A program made the translations under genes and the position numbers. 64,000 bases of DNA from an uncultured Acidobacteriota bacterium. GTDB lineage: Bacteria; Acidobacteriota; Vicinamibacteria; Vicinamibacterales; CAVVIG01. Under the pieces are notes generated by a model. It was not told where the DNA came from, ran no database searches, and saw only the letters and a list, made by a program, of their open reading frames with translations. The DNA lies in the NCBI GenBank assembly GCA_963825245.1, contig CAWGSJ010000013.1, positions 226,537 to 290,536 on the forward strand, read 5' to 3'. Position 1 is the first letter of the stretch. Each line of letters opens with the position of its first letter. Below are positions 4,187 through 50,698 of the stretch, in pieces.

Positions 4187-4378
4187 AGAATAACCCGGCT
4201 CGGGCCCGGTGTAACCCACATTTAACAGCTTCGATACGGAAGCGAAACGTCCGCCGGATACTGTCGACTGTAGAGCGCCACGACGGAGGTCACGGACAGT
4301 GGCGACAGCGACGCCCGGCATCCGGGAGTGATCGCCTCGCCGACACAGCTTCCGTGCCCTCCGCCGTGGCGCTCGTTC

Positions 4379-5070
4379 CATATGCCCAGGCACCGTGTTC
4401 TCATCGTCGAGGACGAGCACGACATCGCCGGACTGATCAAGCACACGCTCGAGCGTACCGGCGAGGCCGAGGCGCACATCGTCGGCACGGGTGACGATGC
4501 GCTGAAGGCGGTCGCGGCGCGCCGCCCGACCTGATGATCCTCGACCTCAACCTGCCGGTGTTGAGCGGCCTCGAGGTCTGCCGCATCCTGCGCGGACGCC
4601 CCGAGGGACGGCACCTGCCGATCATCATGCTGACGGCGCGCACCAGCGAGAACGACCGCGTCAGCGGCCTGGATCTCGGGGCGGACGATTACGTCACCAA
4701 GCCCTTCAGCCTGCGGGAACTGACGTCGCGCGTCCGCGCCGTGCTGCGACGCAGCGGCCGCCCCGACGAAGCGGCCGCCGATCAATTACCGCGGCGATCG
4801 CCTGACCGCCGATTTCGACGCCGTCGCCGTCGCCGTCGACGGCGATCAGATACGGCTCACGCGCCGCGAGTTCGAGCTGCTCCGCTACCTCGTCATGAAC
4901 AAGAACCGGGTCGTGTCACGCGACCGGCTGCTCGAGCGGGTCTGGGGTTACGATCGGCAGGTGGAAACGCGATCCGTTGACGTGCACGTCGGCCGCCTGC
5001 GGAGCAAGCTCGGCACGGCGGGCCGGCAGATCGAGACCGTCGTCGGCCTCGGCTATCGTTTCATCGACTG
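4379..5070 (+). CDS. OmpR/PhoB-family response regulator (REC plus winged-helix domains); 2 frameshifts
   Basis: [15 protein letters not shown] ... [17 protein letters not shown] ... [44 protein letters not shown] closely parallels E. coli PhoB; winged-helix C-terminus ([31 protein letters not shown] ... GLGYRFID) is in another frame. Confidence 0.8.
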
Positions 5071-5283
5071 AGTTTCGATCACCCGCCAGCCGGATTCCTG
5101 CAGCTGCAACGTTTCACGGGCGAACAGCGCGAGCGCGCGCTCCACCCGGTGCCAGTCCTGATAGTGGTCGAGCCGCTGGAGCTTCGAGTCCTCCTCGAGC
5201 CGTATTTCCCAGCCCAGCCCCCCGGTCCGGACTATGGAATATCGACGTTCGTGATTGGCCTGGCGCAGCGTGAGGGCGAACAT
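5053..5283 (-). CDS. Hypothetical small protein (77 aa)
   Basis: GGGAG ribosome-binding site 5 nt upstream of the ATG at 5283; non-repetitive sequence MFALTLRQANHERRYSIVRTGGLGWEIRLEEDSKLQRLDHYQDWHRVERALALFARETLQLQESGWRVIE. Confidence 0.45.
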   Translation of the reverse strand: MFALTLRQANHERRYSIVRTGGLGWEIRLEEDSKLQRLDHYQDWHRVERALALFARETLQLQESGWRVIETQSMKR

Positions 5284-5384: not shown

Positions 5385-5826
5385 TTGGCCATGCCAACGG
5401 CCCAGAGTTTCCGGAATCACGCCCGAATCGTCCCGGCGTACCACGTCGGCGTGTTCGTTCCCTTCCTGGCGAACTTCATTTGGGCAACCTACCGATTGAT
5501 CGGCATGTTCAGCGGCGAAACGTTTATTGCGTTCCTGGTGTCGATCGCGCTGCTGCTGATGTTCTTCTCGCTGCGCGTGCAGGTGCTGACCGTCCAGGAT
5601 CGGGTGATCCGGCTCGAGATGCGCCTGCGGCTGCGCAACGCGCTGCCGCCCGACCTGCAGGACGCAGATCAGCGGCGTGTCGCACAAACAGCTCGTGGCG
5701 CTGCGGTTCGCAAGCGACGCTGAGCTGCCCGCTCTCGTGCGCGAGGTGCTCGCGGGAACGCTCAAGACACAGAAAGAAATCAAGGCTCGCGTGCGTGAGT
5801 GGCAGGCGGACTATCTCCGAGCGTGA
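5385..5826 (+). CDS. Hypothetical membrane protein (2 predicted TM helices); 1 frameshift
   Basis: GGAGG RBS 7 nt upstream of the ATG at 5385; hydrophobic segments VGVFVPFLANFIWATY and FIAFLVSIALLLMFFSL; C-terminus continues in another frame to the TGA at 5826. Confidence 0.5.
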
Positions 5827-5885
5827 CTCGGGGACTCGAGCTTGCCGCGCCGAAGCTCGATGCAATGTCAGGGAGCGAAGGCGGA

Positions 5886-5908
5886 GCGGACCTGAAGGTC
5901 CGCCCTAC
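5886..5908. repeat. REP-like hairpin GCGGACC-TGAA-GGTCCGC plus CTAC tail
   Basis: 7-bp GC stem with TGAA loop; the CTA of the tail is the stop codon of the minus-strand gene. Same architecture as copies at 47618, 53222, 53261 and 54336. Confidence 0.6.
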
Positions 5909-7387
5909 TTGCGAAGGCTGCGGAGGATCTTCGGCGTGATGAACCACCGCAGCGCGCCCGGGCCGGCGGGAGGCAGCGTGTCGAAATCGATCCGGCAGAC
6001 CGCGCCCTTCTTGAACTCGAGAGGGTGGCGCGATCCGATCAGCCGCGCGCCGAGCTCGCCGATGCCGGGCTCGTGACCGACGAGCGCAATGCGCGAGCGG
6101 CGCGACTGTTTTTCGAGATCGGCCAGGACGGCCTGATAGGTGCCACCCGGCGACAGCGACTCGATGACGACGATCGGCGGACGTGGCTCGAACGTGCTGG
6201 CCACGGCATCGGCCGTTTGGCGCGCACGTATCAACGGGCTGGTGAGCACGACGTCGAAAGCCACGCCGAGCCGCAGCGAGTCCGCGGGCCTCCTTTCGAA
6301 GGCGCGCGATGCCGCGCTCGGTCAGCGGCCGCTTCGAGTCGTCGGGCCACGCGTCGCCGCGTTCCTCCGCGATCCCGTGCCGAATCAGGTACAGCTCGTA
6401 GCCGGCCGGCATCGCCTTATCCGGCGCGCCGGGACGCTGACTGGTCTTCGTGGGAACGCTGCGGCGGGTCAGCGCCGCCTCCGCGGTAGCGCTTCGGCGC
6501 GCCAAGCGGTCGCAAATGTCGATGAGCGTTTGCCGCTCACGGACGTAGCGCGCGTGCAGGCGCCGGCAGCTCTCCTCGAGCGACATCAGCACCGTGTCGA
6601 GGTCGCGCCACATCGACACGCTTGGCGGCGTCAGCGAAGCCTGCACGCCCCGGACATGATCGATGAGAATCTGGTGATCGTGCAGCCGGCCGAGCACCTC
6701 TTGCATCCGTTTCAACGTGCGCAGCTCCTTCGTGCTCTTCAGGCCGCGCGCCTCGACGTCGAGCTCGAGGCCGTAGCGCAGCTTCTTGAGCGCGATCCGC
6801 GCCGCGTGCAGCCGCTCGGCCAGGTAGACCGCTCCGGCCGTGTCGATGGCGTGCCGCAGCGCGAGCGCCCGCCGGCTGACACGCGCGTCGAGCGCCCAGC
6901 GCCAGGCGCGGCGCGTCTGGGCATCCTCCGGGCCCTCGAGCTTGCGGACGGCACGGTCGAGCTTGCGCACGATTCGACGGAAGGCGGCCGCCGTCTGCTT
7001 GGCGGGCATTTCCGCGCGTGCCTCGTCCCGCGTGGCGCGCGCCGCCTCGCGAACCAGCCGCAGCGCGGGCTCGGCGAAACGGCCAGATTCGTGCAGCTCG
7101 GCTATCAGGAGCAACATGACGTCCGCCTCGCGGACGCGCCCAAGCCGCCTCGTCACCTTACGCAGCTGGTGTGACAGCTTTGTGACGGACCCGCCGTCCA
7201 GCTGCAGCACGGGCAGCAGCTCCCGGAGCCTTCGCGTAGAGACGCGAGTCCGGTGAACGGCTCGTTGATCGCGGGTTTCAACGCCTGGCATCGCGCGGGA
7301 GAAACGCTCGAGGCGGGCGCGCAACAGAACGTAACGACTCGGTAACACCGACATGCTTAAGATGGGCGAAACGGAAATTATAGTCAA
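5905..7387 (-). CDS. CHAD-domain protein continuous in frame with a SixA-like phosphohistidine phosphatase (1 frameshift inside the SixA part)
   Basis: N-terminal ~320 aa have CHAD features (VHRTRVSTRRLRELLPVL ... AARIALKKLRYGLEL ... RMQEVLGRLHDHQ); then YELYLIRHGIAEERGD ... VVLTSPLIRARQTAD ... ALVGHEPGIGEL is a histidine-phosphatase (SixA) domain. No stop separates the two parts in this assembly. Confidence 0.6.
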
Positions 7388-7408: not shown

Positions 7409-8958
7409 ATGCGCCTTGCGGCCATCGACATCGGCACTAACTCGCTGCACATGATCGTCGTCCGGGTGCGGCCGGATCTTTCCTTCGAAGTGATCGACCG
7501 GGAGAAGGAAATGGTCAGGCTGGGGGCCGGCGGCCTCGACGGCCGCGCGCTCACGCCCGAGGCGATGCAGGCCGCGCTCCAGGTCCTGTCCAAGTTCCGA
7601 CGGTTGGCAGAATCGCACACGGTTGACCACATTGTCGCGGTCGCGACCAGTGCCGTGCGCGAAGCCGAAAACGGCGGCGAGTTCCTGAAGACGGTCGTCG
7701 CGGAGACGGGGATTCGGCCGCGGGTGATATCCGGCACCGAAGAAGCGCGCCTCATCCACATGGCGGCGGCATACGGCGTCGGTGCGGCCGGCGAGGTCCT
7801 GGTGGTGATCGACATCGGCGGTGGCAGCGTCGAGATCACGCGCGGCGCGGGGCCGGCGATGGAAAGCGGGCGCAGCTTCAAGCTGGGCGTGATCAGGCTT
7901 ACCGAGCGCTTCGTCAAGTCGGATCCGATGTCGCCGCGCGAAGAGCGGAAGCTGGTGCGGCATATCGACGCCGACGTCGACGAGCACATCCAGCGCATCA
8001 AGCGCGCCGGGTTCGATCGCGTCGTCGGCACGTCAGGAACGATCCTGAGCCTCGGGGCGATCGCCGCCGGACACCACAGCCGCGGCGGGGTCGCCACGCT
8101 GCGCAACCGCCGCGTCGCGGCCAAGCAGGTGCACCGGGTGCGCCGAACGATGACGTCGATCGGCCTCGAGAAACGCGTGCGCGTGCCGGGACTGGAGCCG
8201 CGGCGCGCCGACCTCTCGCCTGCCGGCGCGGTGCTGCTCGACACGCTGCTGCGCCGTCTCGGGGCCGAAGAGCTCACACTCTGCGACCTGTCGCTGCGTG
8301 AAGGCGTCGTCCTCGATTACATCGCGCGGCACCGGAAGGAAATCGCGCAGGCCGATCGGTATCCGGACGTTCGCCGGCGCAGCATCATCGAGCTCGCCGA
8401 GCGGTGCAGCTACTGGCCGGAGCATGCCCAGCAGATTGCGCGGCTGTCGACGACGCTGTTCGATCAGACGCGGGCGATCCACGGCCTCACCGACAAGGAC
8501 CGCGAGTGGCTGGAGTACGCGGCGATCCTGCACGACGTCGGCGTGCACATCAGCTACGAACGCCACCACAAGCACTCCGAGTACCTGATTCGCAATGGCG
8601 ACCTGCGCGGCTTCGAGCCCGAGGAAATCGAAACCATCGCGCTGGTCGCCCGCTATCATCGCCGCGCCACTCCCAAGAAGCGGCATTCCGTGCTGCGCGG
8701 GTTCTCCGGCCGGCGCCGCCGCACCATCCGGACGCTGGCGGCGATCCTGAGGCTCGCGGAAAGCCTCGATCGCAGCCATGCCCAGACGATCAGCGGCGTC
8801 GAACTGCACGACCGCGGCGAGGACGCGCTGCTGCAGCTGCGGACCAAGAGCGACGCCGAGCTCGAGTTGTGGGCGGCCAACCGGCATGCCGTCCCGTTCG
8901 AGCGACTCATTGGCAAACCCCTTCGTGTCGAGGTGAGCAGGACGACCGCGTATGTTGA
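7409..8958 (+). CDS. ppx: Exopolyphosphatase / guanosine pentaphosphate phosphohydrolase (Ppx/GppA) with HD domain
   Basis: MRLAAIDIGTNSLHMIV, DIGGGS and the HD region (LHDVGVHISYERHHKHSEY) are Ppx/GppA hallmarks. The ORF as assembled runs on to 9199 over the next gene, so the true stop is probably near 8934-8958 (an indel is suspected). Confidence 0.8.
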
Positions 8959-9650
8959 ACAACCTGACAAAGCCGCACGAGCACCCCGGGAAACTGTTCG
9001 TCGTCGAAGGAATCGACGGGTCGGGAAAGACCACCCAGCTGGGACTCCTCGCGAAGTGGCTGAGCGCCGAAGGCCACCGGGTGTTCGTCACGGAATGGAA
9101 CTCGTCCGCGCTGGTCAAGGCGGCGACGAAGACCGGCAAGAAAAAGAACGCGCTGACACCGATGACGTTCAGCCTGCTGCACGCCACGGACTTCGCTGAT
9201 CGGCTGCTGTACAAGATCATCCCGCCGCTCAAGGCAGGCATGATCGTGCTGGCGGATCGTTATACCTATACGGCGTTCGCCCGCGACGTGACCCGCGGCG
9301 TCGACCGGCAGTGGGTCCGCGACCTGTACAGCTTCGCGGTGCGGCCCGACCTGGCGCTCTACTTCCGCGTGCCGATCGACGTGTCGCTGGATCGCCTGAT
9401 GGCGCGCCGCGTCAAGCTCAAGTTCTACGAAGCCGGCATGGATCTCGGCTGGAGCACGAACCCGATCGAGAGCTTCCGGCTCTTCCAGGGCAAGGTGCTC
9501 GAGGAGTACGATCGCATCGTCGACGAGTTCGACCTGGAGGTCGTCGACGCGGTCGGCAGCATCACCGAGCAGCAGCGCTACGTTCGCGGCCTGATCGCGC
9601 CGCGGCTGGCCATGGCCAACGAGGAGATCCACGATGAGCAACCCGTCTGA
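8952..9650 (+). CDS. Thymidylate-kinase-family P-loop kinase, divergent from canonical Tmk
   Basis: LFVVEGIDGSGKTTQ P-loop and ADRYTYTAFAR (DRY motif); AGGACG RBS upstream. The canonical dTMP-binding REPGG is replaced by TEWNSS. Confidence 0.65.
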   Translation: MLNNLTKPHEHPGKLFVVEGIDGSGKTTQLGLLAKWLSAEGHRVFVTEWNSSALVKAATKTGKKKNALTPMTFSLLHATDFADRLLYKIIPPLKAGMIVLADRYTYTAFARDVTRGVDRQWVRDLYSFAVRPDLALYFRVPIDVSLDRLMARRVKLKFYEAGMDLGWSTNPIESFRLFQGKVLEEYDRIVDEFDLEVVDAVGSITEQQRYVRGLIAPRLAMANEEIHDEQPV

Positions 9651-10387
9651 TCCCGGCGAGCACTCCGAGATCCAGGCCGGCCAGTATTACGGCAGCAGCA
9701 TCCCGTACCTGCCGATCAACGGCTACCCGGGCAAGCTGATCGCCATCGAGGGAACGGACGGCGTCGGCCGCACGACGCAGATTCAGCTGCTGCGCGAGTG
9801 GCTCGAGGTGCGCGGCTACGGCGTCATCGAGACCGGCTGGACGCGGTCGCCGTTGATGCAGCCGACCATCGAGCTGGCCAAGTCCAGCAACACGCTGAAC
9901 AAGCTGACGTTCGTCCTGCTCTACGCGACCGACTTCGCCGATCGGCTCGAGAAGGAAATCATCCCGGCACTCAAGGCGGGCTTCGTCGTGCTGTCGGACC
10001 GCTACATCTTCACCGCGCTGGCCCGCGCCGGCGTCCGCGGCATCGATCGCGCCCTGGCTGCGCGGCCTGTACGGCTTCGCGATCGCGCCGCATATGGTCT
10101 TCTACCTGAAGGTCGACGTCGACACGCTGATCGGCCGCATCCTCGAATCGCGCGGCATGGACTTCTGGGAATCGGGCATGGACATGAAGGCGGCCGACGA
10201 TATCTACGACAGCTTCCGGCTGTACCAGAACAAGCTGCTGCGCGAGTACTCGTCGATGGCCGACGAGTTCCATTTCAGGACGGTCGACGCGCGGCGCTCG
10301 ATCGAGCAGATCCAGGACGAGCTGCGCAAGCAGATGTCCGCCTTCCTCGAACCGGTCGACAAACCCGCCGAAGCGCTCTCCCGCTGA
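9634..10387 (+). CDS. Second thymidylate-kinase-family paralogue with a degenerate P-loop (GVGRTT); 1 frameshift near 10070
   Basis: LIAIEGTDGVGRTTQ and SDRYIFTALAR; the C-terminal half (YLKVDVDTLIGRILESRGMDFWESGMDMK...) parallels Tmk-like 1 (YFRVPIDVSLDRLMARRVKLKFYEAGMDLGW...). Start overlaps the upstream gene by 17 nt. Confidence 0.6.
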
Positions 10388-10390
10388 CCG

Positions 10391-10457
10391 CTGTCGTTCG
10401 TCGTTCGCGGACATCTCCGCTCGTCCATCGTTCGAACGTCGAACGTCGAACGACACG
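10391..10457. terminator. Hairpin built from tandem heptamers, (GTCGTTC)x2 ... (GAACGTC)x2-GAACGAC, between convergent genes
   Basis: Left arm ctGTCGTTCGTCGTTCgcgg and right arm cgttcGAACGTCGAACGTCGAACGACacg are reverse complements; lies 3 nt after the tmk-like stop and 10 nt after the minus-strand small ORF stop. Confidence 0.5.
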
Positions 10458-10788: not shown

Positions 10789-12273
10789 ATGAAGCGGTTG
10801 ACGATGTGGACGCTGACGGTGGGGGTTGGTGTCGGTGTGATGGGCGCCGTCGGCGCCAGCGGCGACGGGCCGCTCGTGCTGACGCCGGTCGTCATGACGG
10901 CGCCGCTCTTCAACTACGAGGATGCGCCGGCGACGCCCGACGCGGACGATCCGGCGATCTGGGTCGACCGCGACAACCCCCGGCGCTCGCTGGTGATCGG
11001 CACGGCGAAGGACGCCGGCCTGCTCGTCTATGACATGTCCGGCCAGCTGGTGCAGGCACTGCTGCCGCCGAACGCGCCCCACGTCTCGCCCGCGGATCCG
11101 GCGACACCGGCGGGGATCAACCTGAACCCGGACAAGCCGTGCGCGGGCAGCGACAGCCAGGAGACGTTCGGACGCTTCAACAACGTGGACATCGCGTACG
11201 GCGTGCGCCTCGGGGCGCGCTCCGGCCGAGTCGACGTGGCGGTGGTGTCGGATCGCGGTTGCGACCGGGTGCGCTTCTACAAGATCGATCCTGCGGATCC
11301 GGACGGCCCGCTCGTCGACATCACCGCCCCGAACGTGCCGCGTGTCTTCCCGGTTCGGTTCGAGCAGCCGTCAGTCCTCCAGCCGTCGGGGGCGATGGAG
11401 GGTTGGCGCGACAACCCCGTGGACGATCAGAACACGGTGTACGGCCTGACGGTGTCCCAGGGCGACGTCGACGAAATCTTTGTGTCCGAACGCGAGCGCG
11501 GGCTGGTACGTCAGCTCCAGATCGTTGCCGCGCCAGGCGGGACACTGACGTATCGACCAATTCGGACATTCCTGTTCAAGACGTCGTTCCGGCTCCGGAA
11601 CGAGCTTGGCGCGCCCTACGACTGGACGCCATGCCGAGAAGCCGCACTCGAGGAACCCCAATCCGAGGGCCTCGTGTTCGATCGAGCGAACCAGACCCTC
11701 TATGTCGCCTTCGAGACGATCGGTCTCTACAAGCTGCCGCTGAGCAGGTCGACCCCGGCAATTGTCACCGTGACCGGCAATCACCTGATCGAGCCGGTGA
11801 AGTCGTTCGGCCAGGCGTATCACGCCACTCCGGACGATGACGAGTTCGAGTGCGCGTACAGCCCGGCCGATCCGCCCGCACCCGGCGACGTTGTGGCGAC
11901 CGGCTCCGATGCCAACGCCGGCCGCTTCCTGGATGCCGACCTGGAGGGCTTGAGCATCATCGCGAGCATTCCCGGCCGGACGCTGCTGCTGGCATCGAGC
12001 CAGGGCGATTCGAGCTTTCATTTCTACGATCTCAGCCGGACGCGCACAATGCATCGCGGCGAGTTCTTCGTTGAGGGGGTGGGCGACACCGACGGCGTGC
12101 ACTACGTGCCGGTGCCGATCGGAAACCAGTACCCGCTCGGGCTGCTCGTCATCCAGAACGGCGAGGCCCCCGAACCCCCGGATACCGGCGACGTCAACGG
12201 CTTCGAGTTCGACGGGGCGACGCAGTTCCTCTACCTGGACTTCGCGGACGCGTTGAAGGCCCTGATCCCGTAG
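10789..12273 (+). CDS. Secreted beta-propeller phytase (3-phytase)
   Basis: Signal peptide (MKRLTMWTLTVGVGVGVMGAVGA); DDPAIWVD and repeated beta-propeller phytase motifs; GGAGAG RBS. Confidence 0.7.
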   Translation: MKRLTMWTLTVGVGVGVMGAVGASGDGPLVLTPVVMTAPLFNYEDAPATPDADDPAIWVDRDNPRRSLVIGTAKDAGLLVYDMSGQLVQALLPPNAPHVSPADPATPAGINLNPDKPCAGSDSQETFGRFNNVDIAYGVRLGARSGRVDVAVVSDRGCDRVRFYKIDPADPDGPLVDITAPNVPRVFPVRFEQPSVLQPSGAMEGWRDNPVDDQNTVYGLTVSQGDVDEIFVSERERGLVRQLQIVAAPGGTLTYRPIRTFLFKTSFRLRNELGAPYDWTPCREAALEEPQSEGLVFDRANQTLYVAFETIGLYKLPLSRSTPAIVTVTGNHLIEPVKSFGQAYHATPDDDEFECAYSPADPPAPGDVVATGSDANAGRFLDADLEGLSIIASIPGRTLLLASSQGDSSFHFYDLSRTRTMHRGEFFVEGVGDTDGVHYVPVPIGNQYPLGLLVIQNGEAPEPPDTGDVNGFEFDGATQFLYLDFADALKALIP

Positions 12274-12346: not shown

Positions 12347-13622
12347 ATGGCTCTGTCGAAATCACGCGCATCGTCGATTGATCGACGACGTTTTCTGCAG
12401 TACACGTGGCAGGGCGTCGGGACGAGCCTGTCGCTGGCGCTCGTCTCCGGCCGCGAGCTGTTTGCGGCCCCCTCGCTCGGAAGGAATCCGTTCACGCTGG
12501 GCGTCGCCTCGGGGGATCCCTCCTCGGAGGGGATCGTGCTCTGGACGCGGCTCGCGCCCGAGCCAGCCAATCCGGCAAGCCTCGGCCGTCGGTCGATCCC
12601 CGTTGGCTGGCGCGTCGCCACCGACAGCCACATGCGTCACCTCGTTGCCCGCGGCCATGCCGTCGCCTCTCCCGAGCTCGCACATTCAGTGCACGTGGAA
12701 GTGGATGGCCTGGAGCCCGAGCGCGACTACTTCTATCAGTTCGACCTGCGCGACGAGGAGAGCCGCATCGGGCACTTCCGCACCACGCCTGCGCCGCACG
12801 AGCATGTCCGGCAGCTGCAGTTCGCCTTCGCCACCTGCCAGGACTGGCCGAGCGGCTTTTACACGGCATACCGGGACATGCTGCAGAACGATCTCGACGT
12901 GGTGCTCCACCTGGGCGACTACACCTACGAGTACGCGATCGGCGGCATGACCGGGCGTGGGATGCCGGTCCCGAGCGGATTCGGGCGGGACCGTGGACCT
13001 CGAAACCTACCGCCTGCGGCGAGGCGCTGCGATGCGCCGAAGCGTTGACGGGCAGTTATACGATGCTCGGAGAGGACCAGGAACGCTGGCTCGCGCGCGG
13101 TTTTCGTCAATCGCTCGCGCGCTGGAACTTCGTCGCGCAGCAGCTCCTGATCGCCGAGCTGGAGCACACGCTGCCCGGTACCCTGACGAGTGGTACTGGA
13201 ACGACGCATGGGATGGCTACCCGCTCGCGCGCAAGCGGATGCTGACCGATGTGGTCCAGAGCCGCGTCAGCAACCCGGTCTTCCTGACCGGCGACTGGCA
13301 CTCGACGTTCGCGAACGAGTTGAAGCTGGACTTCAAGAATCAGGCCTCACCAGCCGTGGCGACCGAATTCGTGACGCCGGCCATCACCACCGGCGGCGAC
13401 GGCACACCCTACGGTCCGTACTACTCGCCGATGATCCCGTTCAACCCGCACATCAAGTGCTACGAAGGCGACAAGCGCGGGTACTTCAAGGCGACCGTCA
13501 CGCCTCGAGAGACCCGGCTCGATCTCCGGTTCGTCACGAGCGTGGAAGATCCGAATGGAGTGGGTTACACGGAGCGATCGTTCGTCGTCGAAGACGGCAG
13601 GCCTGTCATCGAGATGTCCTGA
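12347..13622 (+). CDS. phoD: Alkaline phosphatase D family (PhoD), Tat-secreted; about 3 frameshifts
   Basis: Twin-arginine signal (RRRFLQYTWQGVGTSLSLALVSG); LGVASGDPS, HLGDYTYEY and C-terminal LTGDWHSTFANEL ... FVTPAITTGGDG are PhoD signatures; the pieces lie in 3 frames. Confidence 0.75.
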
Positions 13623-33088: not shown

Positions 33089-34231
33089 TCAGGATTCTGT
33101 AAGCGGGACGACCTGAACAGCGGCGTCGGGGACTGCGCTCAGAAAACGATCCAGCGTCGATCCACGCCAGAGCACTTCCCACCGCGACCTGGCCGACTGT
33201 CCGAAGATGACGTGCGTCACCCCTTCTCGCTGCGCGAACGCGACCAGGCCTTCGGCGGGACGGTCGGCCTTCACACGAACCACGGTGGCGCCGAGGCTCT
33301 CGGCGAGACGGATGTTCTGCTGAAGGGCATCCGCGTCGTCGCGCTGGATGCGATCGGGCTGTTCGCGCGGCGTCTCCACGTAGACCGCGTACCACTTCGA
33401 GCCCAGGCGGCCGGCGATGCGGGCGCCGGTGCGAAGCACGCGCGGCGCGAGCGCATTGGAGCTCATGCACACCATCACCCGCTCGGGAATCAGCGCCGGC
33501 TCCAGCCCTTCGCGCTGCCGGTAGCTGGCCGCCTTCTCGCCCACTTCGTCGGCAACGGCACGCAGCGCCAGCTCACGGAGCGTCGACAGGTTGCCCTTGC
33601 GGAAGAAGTTCGTGAGCGCCTGCTCCACTTTCTCCGGCTTGTAGACCTTCCCCTGGCGGAGCCGGTTGCGGAGCTCTTCGACGGTGACGTCGACGTTGAT
33701 CACTTCGTCGGCGCGGTCGATGAACGTGTCGGGGACGGTTTCTCGCACGCGGACTCCCGTCAGCCGGGCCACCGCATCGTTCAGCGTCTCGATGTGCTGG
33801 ATGTTGACCGCCGTCATGACATGAATGCCGGCGCCGAGGATCTCGAGGACGTCCTCGTAGCGCTTCTCATGCCGGCTGCCTGGCACGTTGGTGTGCGCGA
33901 GCTCGTCCACCACGCAGACCTGCGGCTTCCGGCGGATGATGGCGTCGACGTCCATCTCCTCCATCGTCACGCCGCGATAGTCGATGGCGCGCCTCGGCAC
34001 GATCTCCAGGTCCTTGATCTGCGCCTGCGTGTCGGGCCGGCCGTAGGTCTCGACCAGGCCGACCACGACGTCGAGACCGCCGGCGCGCAGCGCATGCGCT
34101 TCCTGCAGCATCTCGTAGGTCTTGCCGACGCCAGGTGCCGCTCCGATGTAGATGCGCAGCCGTGCATGGTCCTGCGCTTTGATCCGTGCCAGCAGCGCAT
34201 CAGCGGACGGTCGCTGATGAGGGACGGTCAC
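33089..34231 (-). CDS. kdpD: Stand-alone KdpD N-terminal sensor domain with USP domain (split KdpD)
   Basis: RLRIYIGAAPGVGKTYEMLQEA (KdpD_N P-loop-like motif) followed by a USP domain; 380 aa with no TM or kinase part. Confidence 0.75.
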   Translation of the reverse strand: MTVPHQRPSADALLARIKAQDHARLRIYIGAAPGVGKTYEMLQEAHALRAGGLDVVVGLVETYGRPDTQAQIKDLEIVPRRAIDYRGVTMEEMDVDAIIRRKPQVCVVDELAHTNVPGSRHEKRYEDVLEILGAGIHVMTAVNIQHIETLNDAVARLTGVRVRETVPDTFIDRADEVINVDVTVEELRNRLRQGKVYKPEKVEQALTNFFRKGNLSTLRELALRAVADEVGEKAASYRQREGLEPALIPERVMVCMSSNALAPRVLRTGARIAGRLGSKWYAVYVETPREQPDRIQRDDADALQQNIRLAESLGATVVRVKADRPAEGLVAFAQREGVTHVIFGQSARSRWEVLWRGSTLDRFLSAVPDAAVQVVPLTES

Positions 34232-42235: not shown

Positions 42236-43786
42236 GCGGGAGCCGCCGGTTCGGTCTCCTTCACGGAGACCGGCACGGCCATGCGTAAACTGCGCGCCGC
42301 CGCCCGGGCTGTTTTCCGCCCAGACGCTGCCACGCTCGGCCGCCAGCAGTCCCCGGACGATCCACAGGCCCATGCCCGTGCCGGAGGCCCGGGTCGTCGC
42401 CGCCTCACCGCGGTAGAAGCGCTCGAACAGATGCGGCAGGTCGGCCGGTGCGATGCCGGCGCCATGATCGCGAACGCGAATGGTGAGCTCCTGGTCGGTC
42501 ACGGTCGCGGAGACCTCGATCCTCGATCCTCGCGGGGTGTACTGCGCGGCGTTTTCGAGCAGGTGGGCCAGCGCGGTTGCGGTCAAGCGCGGATCCAGCC
42601 GCACCGGGACGTCGGGCTCGATCACGACTTCCACGGCGTGTCCCTGCAGCGTGTGCTCGACCTGATCGCGAGCCGCCGCGACGATCTCCGATGGATGCGT
42701 CCAGCGCGACTCGGTCGCCACCGCGCCGGCATCGATGCGCGCCATCTCGAGGACGTTCTGGAACAGCCGCGTCAGGCGCTCGACTTCCGACAGGATCAGA
42801 TCGCTCTGCTCGAGCCGGTCCTCGCGGGTCAGGTCCGGGGTATTGAGATTGCTCGCGGCGATGCGGATGGCGGTCAGCGGCGTGCGAAGGTCGTGGCTGA
42901 GCGACGCCAGCAGCGTGGTCTTCAGCTGCTCGCTCTGCCGCGTGAGCTCGCCGGCCCTGCGCTCCTCGAGAAATTCGGCGCGTTCGATGGCGATGGCGAC
43001 GACCCCTGCCAGCGTATCGAGCGTCCCGGCCTCGACCGGCCGGCCGGCCGCGGCGAGCAGGCCGATCGGCTTCGTGCCGACGCGGAGCGGCACGAGCCGG
43101 ATGGTTCGACCCTCCACTGTCATCGTTCGATGACCGGCATACGTGCGGGCATGCGCGTCGAATTCGAGGGTCGTCTGCGCCGCCGCGAACACATTCGACA
43201 GCTGGCGACGATCGAGCTCGATGTTCTCCCCGCCCGCCTGGTGGACGTCCCAGTCGGTGCCGCGCGGCACCGCGATGGCGACGAATTCGAGGTCGAACCG
43301 GCGGCCCACCGACCGCGCCAGCGCCGCCAGCGCCTGCCGGCTGTCGGTGGTCATCATCACGTCCCGGCTGAGATCGAAGAGCCGCGCGAGTTCGTCGCGG
43401 CGTCCGGCGGCTTCCTCGGTACGCGCTCGGGCGACGGAGGACAGGTTGCTGGCGACCAGACTCACCGCCAGGAAGGCGAACAGGGCAATCCAGTTCTGCG
43501 GGTCAGCAATCGTGAACGTGCCAACCGGCGGCAGGAAGAAGAAATTGAAGCAGAGCATCGCGACCACGGAGGTCAGGACCGCGATCGACAGACGCGAGGT
43601 CGCCGCGACGACCAGGACGACCATCAGGTAGCTGGTCGAGACGGTCGCGGCGTTCGAGACGCGCAGCCACCGGCTGAGGACGAGCGTCACCAGGGCGACG
43701 GCGAGCAGCGCGCCCGCGGAGCGCGCCTTGTCGGTGCGGTCGAACTTGCGCATAAAGCGTCGCTCAGATTTCCACTTGGACGCCAA
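42232..43786 (-). CDS. kdpD: KdpD C-terminal half: 4-TM Kdp sensor, GAF-like and histidine-kinase domains (1 frameshift near 42290 joins it in-frame to kdpE)
   Basis: LSHDLRTPLTAIR (H-box) and HGAGIAPADLPHLFERFYRG ... GTGMGLWIV (HATPase); an alternative frame gives AQFT...PVSVKETEPAAPASR* whose stop overlaps the kdpE ATG. Confidence 0.75.
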
Positions 43787-45682
43787 GCTCCACCACCCGC
43801 TCCGGCGGCAGGCGGAAGAACGTCGTCGCGCGCACCGCGTTGCGGGCCATCAGCACGAACAACTGCTCGCGCCACAGCGCCATGCCCGGCGCGTTCGTCA
43901 CGATCAGCGTTTCGCGGCCGAGGAAATAGGTCACATCTCCCTCATCGAGCTCGAGCCCGTGTTTGGAGGCAAAGGCAAGGGCTTGCGGCACGTTCGGGTC
44001 CTGCATGAAGCCGTAGCTGACGACTACCTCGAACAGGCCCTGGCCAAGCGGACGGACCATGACCTGATCCTTCGGCGCCACATAGGGAACGGGCTTCGTG
44101 GTGACCATCAACGTCACGACGTGTTCGTGCAGAACCTTGTTGTAGCGAAGATTGTGGGCGAGCGCCGGCGGCGTGCCCTTTCCCTGCGCCGTCATGAACA
44201 CCGCGGTGCCCGGAACACGCGCCGGATGCGTGGTCTCGACCGTCCTGAGAAAGGTGTCGACCGGCACTGCCCGCGCCGTGAGGCGTGCCGCGACCAGCTG
44301 ACGTCCGGTCTTCCAGGTCGTCATCAACGTGAACAGCCCCGCGCCGATGACCAGCGGCAGCCATCCCCCGTGCGTGATCTTGAGGGCATTGGCGCCGAAG
44401 AACGCCAGGTCGATCGTCAGAAAGACGCCGGTCACCGCGTAGGCCACTGCCGGCGGCCACTTCCACCGTTCGATGGCGATGACGAACAGCAGCACCGCGG
44501 TGATCACCATCGTCAGCGTCACGGCGATGCCGTAGGCGGCGGCGAGCGCGGTCGACGAGCCGAACCCGATGACGATCAGGATGGTGCTGATCATCAGCGC
44601 CCAGTTGATCTGCGGCACGTAGACCTGACCGATCTCATCGTGGGAGGTGTGGTCGATGTCGAGGCGCGGGCAGTAGCCGAGTTGAATCGCCTGCTGGGTC
44701 AGCGAGAACGCGCCGGAGATGAGCGCCTGCGACGCGATGATCGCGGCGGCCGTCGCCAGGCCGACGAGCGGCAGCAGCGCCCAGTCCGGCGCGAGCAGGA
44801 AGAACGGCTGTTCGGCAGCGGTCGGATTGCGCAGCAGAAGCGCGCCCTGGCCGAAGTAGTTCAGCAGCAGCGCCGGCAGCACCAGGCTGAACCATGCCAC
44901 GCGGATCGGGAGCTTGCCGAAATGGCCCATGTCCGCATAAAGCGCCTCGCCGCCGGTCACGACCAGGAACACGGCGCCGAGCACGGCGAAGCCATGCCAG
45001 CCGTGCTCCACGAAGAACGACACGGCGTGGCGAGGGTCGATGGCCGTCGAGCACGACCGGATTCTGAACGAGCGACGCAATCCCCAGCGTCGCGATGACG
45101 ATGAACCAGACGACCATGATCGGCCCGAACAGGCGGCCGACGCGGTGCGTGCCATGCCGCTGGATCGCGAACACCGCCGACGAGAATCACGACCGTGACC
45201 GGCACGACGTACGGATCGAAGAACGGCGTCGCGACCTTCAGGCCCTCGACGGCGCCCAGCACGGTAATCGCGGGCGTGATCATCCCATCGCCGTACAGCA
45301 GTGCGGCGCCGAAGATGCCCATCAGCACCAGCACCGGCCACCGGACGCGGGTGCCGTTGTTCTGCGGCAGCAGCGCGGTCAGCGCGAGGATGCCGCCCTC
45401 GCCCTGGTTGTCGGCGCGCATGACGATCGCGATGTACTTGACCGAGATGACCAGCAGCAGCGAGTAGATGATCAGCGACAGCACGCCGAGCACGTTGTCG
45501 TGAGTCGCCGGCACCGAATGCGAGCCGAAAAAGCACTCCCGCATCGCGTACAGCGGACTGGTGCCGATGTCGCCGTAGACGACGCCAATCGCCGTCAGAG
45601 TAAGGGGAAGGAGCTTGCGCGGGCCGACGCCGGTCGTCGCCAGAATGTCTCCAATCGCCGGGTTGGATCAGGTCCGCACTGA
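43764..45682 (-). CDS. kup: KUP/HAK/KT potassium uptake transporter (multiple frameshifts; start approximate)
   Basis: [23 protein letters not shown] ... [18 protein letters not shown] ... and C-terminal [13 protein letters not shown]... match Kup across 3 frames. Confidence 0.8.
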
Positions 45683-45703
45683 TTTTATACCGAGCCCCCA
45701 CGG

Positions 45704-47565
45704 TCACTGACTGAGATGGAATGGGACACTGGTGACGACGGTATTGCGGCGGAACAGCAGCGCGCCTTTGATCAGCAGCGCCCGCTGGTTGTGGAACAGG
45801 TGGTGCCACCAGCGCGCGGGCACGAACTCCGGGAGCACCACGGTGACGTAGTCGTCGGGTGACTCGCGATCGACCTGCTCGATGTACTCGAGCAGCGGCT
45901 CCATCAGCGATCGATACGGCGACTGGAGCACGACCAGCGGCACGCCATCGCCCCACTTGTCCCATTCGCGTTTGAGCTGCTCGGTCGCGACCGGATCGAC
46001 GTCGACGTAGAGGGCTCGGACATCCTTGGATAAGGTACGGGCGTAGTTCACGGCCTCGACCACCGCGCGCTGGACACCGCTCACTGGCACCAGGACGATG
46101 TTGTTCCGCTTTTTCGGCTCTGGCGCGAAGCCGCGCATCGTGAGTTGATTCGCCACGGAGTCGTAGTGCTGCCGCGTCTTCTTGAAGACGAGCACATGGA
46201 TCGGGATGAGCAGCATGATGATCCATGCGCCCTCGTCCTGCCTTGGTGACTCGCCACGACGATCAGCACGAGGGCGGTCACCAGCGCACCGATCGCGTTC
46301 ATCGCCGCGTGCGCCCGCCAGCTCGAGCCGCCGAGGCGGCGCCAGTGCACGACCATCCCGGCCTGCGAGATCGTGAACGACAGGAACACGCCGATCATGT
46401 AGAGCGGGATGAGCGCATGCGTGTCGCCGCGAAACATCACCAGCAGGATGCCGGCGAGGACGCTCAGCCCGACGATGCCGTTGGAAAAGGCCAGCCGATC
46501 GCCCTGGTTCATGAACTGGCGCGGCAGGTGGCGGTCGCGGGCGAGGATCGACGCGAGCCGCGGAAAATCGGCGTAGGCGGTGTTGGCCGCGAGCACGAGG
46601 ATCAGCATCGTCGCGGCCTGCACCGCGTAGTACGGCATCGCCGCGAGCGCCGAAGACGCCGCGCGCCAGCTGCGACACGACCGTTTCCTGCTCGTTCGGC
46701 ATGATGTGGTAGGCATGCGCGAGCAGCGTGATCCCGAGGAACATCGTCACGGACAACGCCGCCATCATCAGCATGGTGGCTGCGGCATTGCTGCGACTCG
46801 GGCGGCTGAAACGCAGGAACGCCGTTCGAAACGGCTTCGACGCCGGTCATCGCGGTGCAGCCGTTCGAAAACGCGCGCAGGAGCAGAAACAGCGTCAGCG
46901 GCGACGCCGTCGCCACCAGGTCGTGCGGCCGGAGCCGGTGGCACGGTCCCGGCCAGCACGCGCCAGGTCCCGACGCCAATCAGCAGGAGCGATCGTCGCA
47001 ATGAAGAAATACGTCGGCACGGCGAAGATGCGGCCGGACTCGCGGATGCCGCGCAGATTGCCCAGCATCAGCACCACGACGAATCCCAGCGGCGAGCTCG
47101 ACGCGACTGACGTGCCAGTTCGGAAACGCCGACGTGATCGCGGCCACTCCGGCCGCGACGCTGACCGCGACGGTCAGCACGTAGTCGATCAGCAACGCCG
47201 CCGCGGCAATGAGCGCCGGCGTCTCGCCAAGATTGTCGCGCCGCCACGATGTAGGCGCCGCCTCCGCTTGGATAGGCATGGATCGTCTGTCGATAGGAAA
47301 ACACGACGATCAGCAGGATGGCGGCGATGACGAAGGCAATCGGGCTGGCCGCGCCGAGGGCCGCCGCGCCGGCCAGGACCAGGACGCGCAGGACTTCTTC
47401 CGTGGCGTAGGCGACGGACGACAGCGCATCGGATGACAGGACGGCCAGGCCGACTGGCCTGGACAGCCGCTCGTGGTGGGCGAGATGCGACGGAATGGGC
47501 TTGCCGACGATCAGTCGCTTGACCTGAGCGCCGAGCGACCCTTCTTCGAACACCAGGGCCTCCAA
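45704..47565 (-). CDS. APC-superfamily permease with a C-terminal soluble domain (multiple frameshifts)
   Basis: N-terminus (MEALVFEEGSLGAQVKRLIVGKPIPSHLAHHERLSRPVGLAVLSSDALSSVAYATEEV), TM core and C-terminal domain (IIMLLIPIHVLVFKK...) lie in 4 frames. Confidence 0.6.
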
Positions 47566-49176: not shown

Positions 49177-50009
49177 ATGCGTCTTGACGCTCCCGCCGTG
49201 CCGCGTCCTGTGCCCGCGGCGTCTTCTCCGGCTCCGGTCGGCTCCCCTCGGCCCGCCAAGATCGACGTGACGGGCATGAACTTCTATTACGGCCTCAACC
49301 GGGTCCTCGACGGCATCAACCTCAAGATTCATGCCGAATCAGGTCACGGCGCTCATCGGCCCGTCGGGATGCGGCAAGTCGACGTTCCTGCGGTCGCTGA
49401 ACCGGATGAACGACATCATCCCGGGCGCCCGGGTCGAAGGCTCGGTCCTGATCGACGGCCAGGACATCTACGCGCCCGGGCGTGGACGTCGTCGCCCTGC
49501 GGCGGCGCGTCGGCATGGTGTTCCAGAAGTCGAACCCGTTTCCGAAGACGATCTTCGAGAACGTCGCCTACGGTCTCCGCATCAACAGCATGGCGGCGTC
49601 GCGCGACGACATGCGCGGGCGGGTCGAGGACAGCCTGAAGGCCGCGGCGCTCTGGGACGAGGTCCGCGACCGGTTGCATACGTCTGCGCTCGCGCTCTCG
49701 GGCGGCCAGCAGCAGCGCCTGTGCATCGCCCGGGCGCTGGCGGTCGAACCCGAGATCATCCTGATGGACGAGCCGGCGTCGGCGCTCGACCCGATCGCCA
49801 CCCAGCGCATCGAGGAGCTGATCTACCAGCTGAAAACGCGGTATACGATCGTCATCGTGACGCACAACATGCAGCAGGCGGCGCGCGTGTCGGACGTCAC
49901 GGCGTTCTTCTGGCTCGGCAAGCTGGTCGAATGCGGCCGGACCGAAAAGATTTTCACGGCTCCAGCCGAAAAGCTGACCGAGGACTATGTCACGGGACGG
50001 TTTGGCTAA
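49177..50009 (+). CDS. pstB: Phosphate ABC transporter ATP-binding protein (2 frameshifts)
   Basis: Near-collinear with E. coli PstB: [12 protein letters not shown] ... [24 protein letters not shown] ... [17 protein letters not shown] ... [10 protein letters not shown]. Confidence 0.85.
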
Positions 50010-50013
50010 TCGC

Positions 50014-50698
50014 ATGGAGCCGGTCGAACGCGTCGTCACGCCACTTCCAGGACGAGCTCGAGCAGCTGAAGACCCGGCTGCTCGAGATGGGCGGCATTGC
50101 CGAGGAACAGGTGCGACCGGCGGTCAAGGGGCTTGTCGACCGCGACCAGGCGCTCATCGACCAGGTGCTCACCGGCGACGACCCGCTGAACTCGCTGCAC
50201 ATCGAGATCGACAACCGCTGCTTCACGCTGCTGGCGCTCTACCAGCCGATGGCCGCCGACCTGCGGACCATCGTCGCGGCCGTGAAGATCAACACCGATC
50301 TCGAGCGGGTCGGCGACCTGGCGGTGAACATCGCCGAGGCGGCCCGCCGCTACGTCGCGCACCCGCCGGTCAAGAAGCTGATCGACATCCCGCGGATGGC
50401 GATGATCGCGCAGACGATGCTGCGCGACGCGCTGGACGCGTTCGTCCGGCGCGACATCGAGCTCGCACAGCAGGTGCTCAACGAGGACGACCGGCTCGAC
50501 TCGCTCAAGACCCAGATCTTCCGCGAGCTCCTGACCTACATGCTCCAGGACCCGCACACGATTGAGCCGGCCCTCGACCTGATCCTGATTTCGCGCCACC
50601 TGGAGCGGATCGGCGATCACGCCACGAACGTCGCCGAGGACGTGATCTTCATCGTCTCGGCCCGGGACGTCCGCCACCACGCCCGGGAAGGGGCGTAG
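50014..50698 (+). CDS. phoU: Phosphate signalling complex protein PhoU (1 frameshift near 50035)
   Basis: Two PhoU repeats ([14 protein letters not shown] ... [16 protein letters not shown]). Confidence 0.85.

Follow-up and report, generated by a model that had tools for sequence, protein, structure and literature searches.

A putative PPK3-type polyphosphate kinase operon in an uncultured Acidobacteriota bacterium

The ppx-c-r locus

We analysed a 64,000-nucleotide stretch of DNA (hereafter the window; G+C content 65-70%) from contig CAWGSJ010000013.1 of an uncultured Acidobacteriota bacterium, with a focus on three consecutive genes on its plus strand: a Ppx/GppA-family exopolyphosphatase gene (ppx), followed by two genes coding for proteins with the thymidylate kinase (Tmk) fold, Tmk-like 1 and Tmk-like 2 (Table 1). 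The latter two are candidates for the catalytic (c) and regulatory (r) subunits of a polyphosphate kinase of the PPK3 class. The motifs listed for them in a preliminary description of this DNA are all present in the translations: Tmk-like 1 displays a Walker A motif GIDGSGKTT, a TEWNSS motif and DRY, and Tmk-like 2 the Walker A motif GTDGVGRTT, with the lysine replaced by arginine. Tmk-like 2 also retains DRY (SDRYI). As that description also stated, the two are paralogous (46% identity over 202 amino acids (aa), E 6e-65) and overlap by exactly 17 nucleotides (nt), with a Shine-Dalgarno-like GAGGAG just 5' of the r ATG at 9634; the CHAD-domain gene that it placed opposite ppx likewise lies divergently upstream. 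Two of its statements need amendment. Tmk-like 1 does not begin directly downstream of ppx but is overlapped by the ppx frame over 248 nt, and Tmk-like 2 does not run as one gene to 10387, its frame being broken near 10052 by an extra C that had been overlooked.

The PPK3 class was first demonstrated biochemically in the archaeon Sulfolobus in 2024-2026 (Hofmann et al., Journal of Biological Chemistry 2026, PMC12995831; preprint bioRxiv 2024, 10.1101/2024.08.28.610084). In Sulfolobus acidocaldarius, two genes annotated as deoxythymidine monophosphate (dTMP) kinases adjoin ppx, in an operon with the order sixA-ppx-c-r-CHAD; their products, Saci_2019 (cPPK3) and Saci_2020 (rPPK3), constitute a heteromeric α2β2 reversible polyphosphate kinase, SaPPK3, which prefers ADP and polyphosphate (polyP), favours making ATP out of these and does not use GTP as a donor (PMC12995831). 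The r subunit activates c at a 1:1 ratio, with Saci_2019 alone showing about 10% activity, and the inactivity of r was attributed to a lost DRX arginine (PMC12995831). Neither protein makes the diphosphate dTDP from dTMP, the true dTMP kinase, Saci_0893, being encoded elsewhere (PMC12995831). Judged by its genes, the window locus is a further bacterial example of this system. Hence, the arrangement is not undescribed, as had been supposed: it belongs to the PPK3 family, and Acidobacteriota homologues are already mentioned in the preprint (10.1101/2024.08.28.610084; PMC12995831).

Table 1. Positions of the ppx-c-r genes and of other features in the window
Feature	Position	Strand	Evidence and remarks
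ppx (Ppx/GppA-family exopolyphosphatase)	7409..9199	+	Pfam Ppx-GppA 5.5e-59, Ppx-GppA_III 4.5e-32, HD
Putative cPPK3-type catalytic subunit (Tmk-like 1, 232 aa)	8952..9650	+	PF02223 2.2e-22
Putative rPPK3-type regulatory subunit (Tmk-like 2, 250 aa after removal of one base)	9634..10387	+	PF02223
Sigma-70-like promoter match TTAAGA-16-TATAGT	7357..7384	+	Short divergent region 5' of ppx; consensus match only, 1 found vs 0.3 expected
Inverted repeat, 16 nt, 94% complementary, 32-nt spacer	10392..10455	+	Directly 3' of the r stop; embedded CGAACGT repeats
CHAD-domain gene	6412..7387	-	Pfam CHAD 5.4e-27; divergent from ppx; start more likely the ATG at 7354
SixA-like histidine phosphatase (His_Phos_1)	5905..6411	-	His_Phos_1 and TIGR00249 matches; frameshifted near 6278
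OmpR/PhoB-type response regulator	4274-5071		Phosphate-related
Beta-propeller phytase	10789-12273		Phosphate-related
PhoD	12347-13622		Phosphate-related; split
pstB-phoU	49331-50698		
KdpD sensor-domain open reading frame	33089-34231		
kdpA and kdpB	35.6-39.4 kb		
Kup-type K+ transporter open reading frame	43764-46226	-	
Cyclic di-AMP riboswitch RF00379	47552-47759	-	55.6 bits, E 3.5e-10; upstream of the Kup-type gene

Tmk-like 1 and the catalytic subunit of PPK3

Among known structures, Tmk-like 1 matches STK_15430 (PDB 2plr/5h70) with E 1.1e-55 and 191.9 bits, as against 3e-14 and 56.3 bits for the best canonical Tmk; with Saci_2019 it shares 51% identity (204 bits). It also possesses the full set of c-class signature residues, namely K26, E48, S51, G62, H77 and the basic K56, K60, K64 and K157. 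In these comparisons, Tmk-like 1 is nearer to the characterised cPPK3 than to the canonical dTMP kinases.

We weighed the alternative that one or both genes code for real dTMP kinases, as in the database annotation. Both proteins match PF02223, and Tmk-like 1 scores 82.9 bits on TIGR00041, the equivalog model of canonical dTMP kinase, barely below the cut-off of 83.25 (the two halves of Tmk-like 2 reach 54.1 and 21.2 bits, under the same cut-off). Moreover, homologues are so named in the source databases, and STK_15430 was first reported as an unusual thymidylate kinase. However, the assay behind that report tracked ADP formation only, and the Sulfolobus pair, as mentioned above, is inactive on dTMP (PMC12995831). 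In place of the dTMP-site motif REPGG (TREPGG in the Thermus thermophilus Tmk), c has TEWNSS and r has TGWTRS; in the F-x-x-D-R element, neither the stacking Phe nor the Arg is aligned. Further, a conserved pairing with ppx, CHAD and sixA would be unexpected for a tmk. We consider dTMP kinase activity highly improbable for these genes, in line with the preliminary statement that neither is a housekeeping tmk. The 64-kb window has no third Tmk-like region besides c and r, and so no canonical tmk; a canonical dTMP kinase is reported elsewhere in the genomes of bacteria of this clade (PMC12995831).

Tmk-like 2 and the break in its reading frame

Tmk-like 2 matches the STK_15430 structure 2plr with 151.5 bits (E 3.2e-43), as against 9.5e-15 for its best canonical Tmk, and the two window proteins score 56-58 bits to canonical Tmk structures; with Saci_2020 Tmk-like 2 shares 28% identity (97 bits). 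An AlphaFold2 model of an r homologue, built on an 87-sequence alignment (predicted local distance difference test score, pLDDT, 85.7), has its closest structural matches in 5h70 and 4rzx, with template-modelling (TM) scores of 0.91-0.92 and a root mean square deviation of about 2 Å.

The r frame is broken at about 10050-10054 and continues in the open reading frame (ORF) 10094..10387. The break stems from a 1-nt insertion at about 10052, an extra C in CGCGCC[C]TGG that lengthens a C-run and is missing from all five relatives compared (L001-L005); the frame-intact form at 10050-10054 would read CGCGCCTGG (two C). With this base removed, the reconstructed protein is 96% identical to the intact homologue P0122, with 98% identity before the break and 95% after it. 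Were the frameshift real, r would be a true pseudogene in this organism, leaving c alone functional or the system in decay; the insertion is indeed present in the window sequence, and the residual activity of Saci_2019 on its own (PMC12995831) would be compatible with such a state. The near-uniform identity on either side of the break, however, speaks of no downstream decay, the insertion merely extends a C-run, and other single-base indels are found in the window at 4521, 5304, 5662 and 6278, in addition to the split PhoD gene; related long-read contigs show like breaks in other genes. Because there is no decay 3' of the break and there are further single-base indels in the window, we read the break as most likely a sequence error of an indel-rich assembly, and a pseudogene as very improbable. 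A programmed frameshift was also considered and rejected, as the five relatives do without the extra base and many similar indels occur in the window.

The four indels were scored against both L001 and L003; that at 4521 falls in the response regulator and that at 6278 in sixA. In all, the OmpR-type regulator, sixA, rPPK3 and PhoD genes are broken in the window. The closest relatives are Microflora-Danica-type contigs of metagenome-assembled genomes, which have similar breaks of their own, for example in c in L001 and in ppx in L003. This pattern fits an error-rich, long-read style assembly.

Pairing, context and signatures across genomes

To place the locus in a wider setting, we surveyed one genome per GTDB species. 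Of 600 candidate stretches, at least 549 proved to be relatives, and the best 80 loci were analysed, all of them at least 54% identical to Tmk-like 1 and together drawn from more than 10 phyla. They include Acidobacteriota (Vicinamibacterales, Bryobacterales, Terriglobia, Blastocatellia), Nitrospirota, Binatia and delta-proteobacterial lineages, Chloroflexota, Planctomycetota, Armatimonadota, Bacteroidota and Ignavibacteriota, and archaea of the Nitrososphaerales. The c gene is directly followed by r in 75 of the 80 genomes; ppx is found at most 6 kb away in 53 and directly 5' of c in 34. A SixA-like gene is nearby in 32 genomes and a CHAD gene in 17. Synteny with ppx, the lack of which the preliminary description had named as evidence against its reading, is hence conserved. 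The window's own arrangement of divergent sixA/CHAD followed by ppx-c-r recurs in L001-L011, with CHAD divergent from ppx at the same position. Close cPPK3 homologues with an adjacent r thus extend over more than 10 phyla and at least 80 species-level genomes, a much broader range than the "few bacteria" of the published account (PMC12995831); a search of 1.84 billion representatives further recovered 308 clusters at E <= 1e-30.

The two classes of subunit are set apart by distinct signatures. GIDGSGK[ST]T and DRY are found in 84 of 84 c sequences, along with [TS]EWNSS and the conserved K56, K60, K64 and K157; the r sequences are typified by GR[ST]T, TG[WML]xRS, a Tyr in place of His77 and loss of the c basic residues. 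By sequence, these four candidate cleft positions hold a basic residue in 87% or more of the c proteins but in no more than 25% of the r proteins; Saci_2019 shares K60, K64 and K157. On average, c carries a net charge of +3.5 and r one of -4.8. The substitution of the Walker A lysine by arginine occurs in all 78 bacterial and Nitrososphaerales r subunits (L003-L082): the degenerate P-loop pointed out earlier is therefore real, but it is no one-off, being shared by essentially every r-type homologue examined. DRY is retained in 77 of 79 r sequences, the exceptions being one DCY and the DGY of Saci_2020. Likewise, r keeps R84, R111, R115, R148, E160 and D164 at 90% conservation or more, several of these being lost in Saci_2020, and with 75-90% identity within the order, as against 78-93% for c, it is nearly as conserved as its partner. 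Many r subunits (L012-L082; 9634-9730 in the window) also have an N-terminal extension with the motif [FYW]YGxG[LI]PY[LV], conserved at 50-76% per position and located ahead of the first strand. This motif is absent from c and Saci_2020, and may be an interface or regulatory element.

Saci_2020 has only r-type proteins among its top 15 matches, with a median of 94 bits to r versus 74 bits to c (p = 9e-23). A neighbour-joining tree parts c from r, with the c clade recovered in 100 of 100 bootstraps. Across this sample, the loss of the DRX arginine appears to be specific to Sulfolobales rather than a defining feature of PPK3.

Predicted function of the pair

Taken together, these observations make it probable that the locus is a bacterial PPK3 operon of an Acidobacteriota (Vicinamibacterales-like) organism, whose c and r products would form a heteromeric polyphosphate kinase from two exapted Tmk-fold proteins. 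By analogy with SaPPK3, its function is likely to be reversible polyP:ADP phosphotransfer rather than dTMP phosphorylation. Going by the Sulfolobus enzyme and the conserved residues, c would bind ATP or ADP at the Tmk nucleotide site, hold polyP in a basic cleft at the position of the canonical dTMP site, and reversibly transfer phosphate between polyP and ADP/ATP, with ATP formation favoured at a low ATP/ADP ratio. The r subunit is expected to have no activity of its own and to activate c through oligomerisation, which in Sulfolobus yields an α2β2 assembly. Synthesis of c and r in equimolar amounts would be in keeping with their tight overlap and the Shine-Dalgarno sequence inside it. The preliminary description had already envisaged a heteromeric pair with the second gene as a regulatory, pseudo-kinase-like partner, which agrees with the Saci_2019/Saci_2020 biochemistry (PMC12995831), the homology and the synteny. 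It had also proposed a link to polyP or (p)ppGpp metabolism: the PPK3 homology and gene context favour the former, whereas the latter is not indicated. Its expectation of nucleoside or deoxynucleoside monophosphates (NMP/dNMP) as substrates does not hold for the characterised enzyme, which moves phosphate between polyP and ADP/ATP and not to dTMP.

Several points weigh against this assignment. The function is carried over from the sole characterised PPK3, that of an archaeal thermophile, with which c shares 51% and r 28% identity. The clade of r that includes Saci_2020 has a bootstrap support of only 37% in the neighbour-joining tree, and r is frameshifted in the window sequence. Finally, the published basis of r inactivity is inapplicable here, as r keeps DRY and most of the active-site residues; since it instead shows the Walker A Lys to Arg change, its role may differ from that of Saci_2020.

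This last point also bears on a further alternative, namely that the pair is a PPK3-like heteromer with another specificity or logic, such as GDP or NMP acceptors, a Ppx/GppA-type coupling to (p)ppGpp, or an r that binds ligand or is itself active. The retained residues of r, with the P-loop substitution as its only lesion, amount to a far milder change than in Saci_2020, and together with its near c-like conservation and the membership of the adjoining gene in a family whose Ppx and GppA activities the models do not separate, they lend this alternative some substance. Nevertheless, the enzyme with which c shares 51% identity prefers ADP and polyP and makes no use of GTP as a donor (PMC12995831), and CHAD, SixA, phytase and PhoD indicate polyP and phosphate over alarmones. 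We regard such an altered specificity as unlikely, and favour a PPK3-type polyphosphate kinase.

Within the PPK3 family, the majority r type has an invariant Walker A arginine, but its retained DRY and R84, R111, R115, R148, E160 and D164 suggest that these subunits may still bind a ligand. On a more speculative note, which we put forward as possible but well short of an even chance, the bacterial and thaumarchaeal r might be no inert scaffold of the Saci_2020 kind but a ligand-binding subunit that senses ATP/ADP or polyP and allosterically steers the reaction one way or the other, or else a partner with residual catalysis; the majority of PPK3 enzymes would then be regulated unlike the sole characterised one, and PPK3 might be a polyP kinase of major importance, largely overlooked so far, in bacteria of soil and groundwater that are still uncultured.

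The read-through tail of ppx and the flanks of the operon

The ppx ORF scores 260.8 bits on NCBIfam TIGR03706, under the cut-off of 307, and the profile models fail to distinguish Ppx from GppA activity for it. Its conserved portion stops at about 8935, and the final 87 or so codons are a read-through tail overlapping cPPK3 in another frame up to the first ppx-frame stop at 9197-9199, which defines the overlap (8952-9199). An overlap of 113-263 nt is seen in every Vicinamibacterales-type relative (L001-L011), Illumina assemblies included; outside this group, in other phyla, the ppx frame ends 5-8 nt short of c. The tail is Arg-rich and its amino-acid sequence drifts. A functional dual-coding region was considered and rejected, as c shows no suppression of synonymous change there (0.30, versus 0.33 outside the overlap); the drift of the tail and the general rarity of stops in that frame also disfavour it. 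Hence, the tail looks like neutral read-through specific to the Vicinamibacterales-type clade.

The inverted repeat that follows r has no T-run and may mark the end of the operon. An Rfam search gave no match near the ppx-c-r locus.

Neighbouring genes

The CHAD ORF continues in frame, without a stop, into the SixA-like gene at about 6412 on the minus strand (…DKAMPAGYELYLIRHG…). The two are separate adjacent genes in L001 and L002, and the in-frame join could be a real fusion or another sequence error. The sixA gene itself carries a 1-nt insertion at 6278 relative to L001 and L003, and relatives have an intact gene of 165-168 aa. The OmpR-type regulator, CHAD, SixA, Ppx, phytase and PhoD fit a phosphate-responsive cluster. 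The pstB-phoU genes, which like the regulator, phytase and PhoD genes relate to phosphate acquisition, lie farther off in the window, and in the relative L002 they are directly 3' of r. No PPK1 or PPK2 domain was found among the 30 large window ORFs scanned.

Elsewhere in the window, a cyclic di-AMP riboswitch precedes a Kup-type transporter gene, and kdpA, kdpB and a KdpD sensor-domain ORF are also present (Table 1); this is an ordinary potassium-homeostasis arrangement.

Domain fusions

Fusion-bearing relatives were found among P0431, P0447, P0451, P0454, P0474, P0488, P0374, P0402, P0419 and P0362. Their architectures comprise c and r combined with Ppx domain III/HD (650-696 aa), an MFS transporter with a Tmk-like and an APH/DUF2252 domain (1030-1237 aa), an inorganic pyrophosphatase with a Tmk-like domain (1610 aa) and, in a EukProt transcript from the protist Ancoracysta twista, an SPX domain with a c-type domain and an APH/DUF2252-like domain. 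P0362 of Alicyclobacillus sp. SP_1, with c and r joined in tandem, looks like a real fusion, whereas the apparent c-r fusions P0004, P0121 and P0123 were rejected as frameshift or chimeric assembly artefacts on reading their sequences. Such fusion partners in other organisms (Ppx domain III, SPX, MFS, pyrophosphatase) tie the Tmk-like domain to phosphate metabolism, and they may be a sign that eukaryotes have PPK3-like enzymes controlled through SPX. The terms SPX, MFS and DUF2252 are absent from the main text of the published PPK3 study (PMC12995831).

Significance

The "dTMP kinase" annotation appears wrong for thousands of entries of this kind, which most likely code for one or the other subunit of a polyphosphate kinase. 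Soil, groundwater and wastewater harbour abundant Vicinamibacterales, Nitrospira, Chloroflexota and Planctomycetota, and PPK3 may be a main route between polyP and ATP in these groups; such a route would matter for phosphorus cycling and for modelling enhanced biological phosphorus removal. The Lys to Arg change in the P-loop of r, in an otherwise intact active site, offers a clear, testable contrast to the sole enzyme studied.

Comparison with known systems

The closest counterpart is SaPPK3 (locus L083; Saci_2020 at 5621-6253). Both loci have adjacent, overlapping Tmk-fold paralogues 3' of ppx, with an overlap of 17 nt here and 22 nt in Sulfolobus, and both include sixA and CHAD in the cluster. 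In both, c displays TEWNSS and conserved basic residues that may form a patch, and r is of the same class and lacks such a patch. They differ in several respects: the Walker A and DRY motifs of r are GTDGVGRTT and DRY here but GIMSSGKTT and DGY in Saci_2020, where R84 and R111 are missing too; identity between c and r is 46% here and 30% in Sulfolobus; and sixA and CHAD are divergent upstream here but co-directional in Sulfolobus. In addition, r here has the N-terminal extension with a [FYW]YGxG[LI]PY[LV]-like motif, which has no equivalent in Saci_2020. The host is a mesophilic bacterium, and its system is known from sequence alone.

STK_15430 of Sulfurisphaera tokodaii (PDB 2plr, 4nzy, 4rzx, 5h70) is a cPPK3 homologue deposited as a dTMP kinase. 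Tmk-like 1 is 47% identical to it (E 1e-55), with TEWNSS, KKK, HATDF.DR and DRY conserved; the structures are of the catalytic subunit alone, and neither an r subunit nor a complex has been solved. The canonical Tmk proteins (PF02223/TIGR00041) share the fold, P-loop, DRY/DRX motif and lid with the window pair, but the pair is without their dTMP-binding elements, and its genes are paired and set in a polyP context. A more distant parallel is offered by the two-domain class II PPK2, such as PA3455 of Pseudomonas aeruginosa, in which an active P-loop module is likewise combined with an inactive paralogous module driving oligomerisation (an analogy drawn in PMC12995831) and polyP-dependent nucleotide phosphorylation is likewise favoured. 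These enzymes, however, belong to the PF03976 family, their two modules are joined in one chain instead of forming separate subunits, and the sites for ADP and polyP have changed places.

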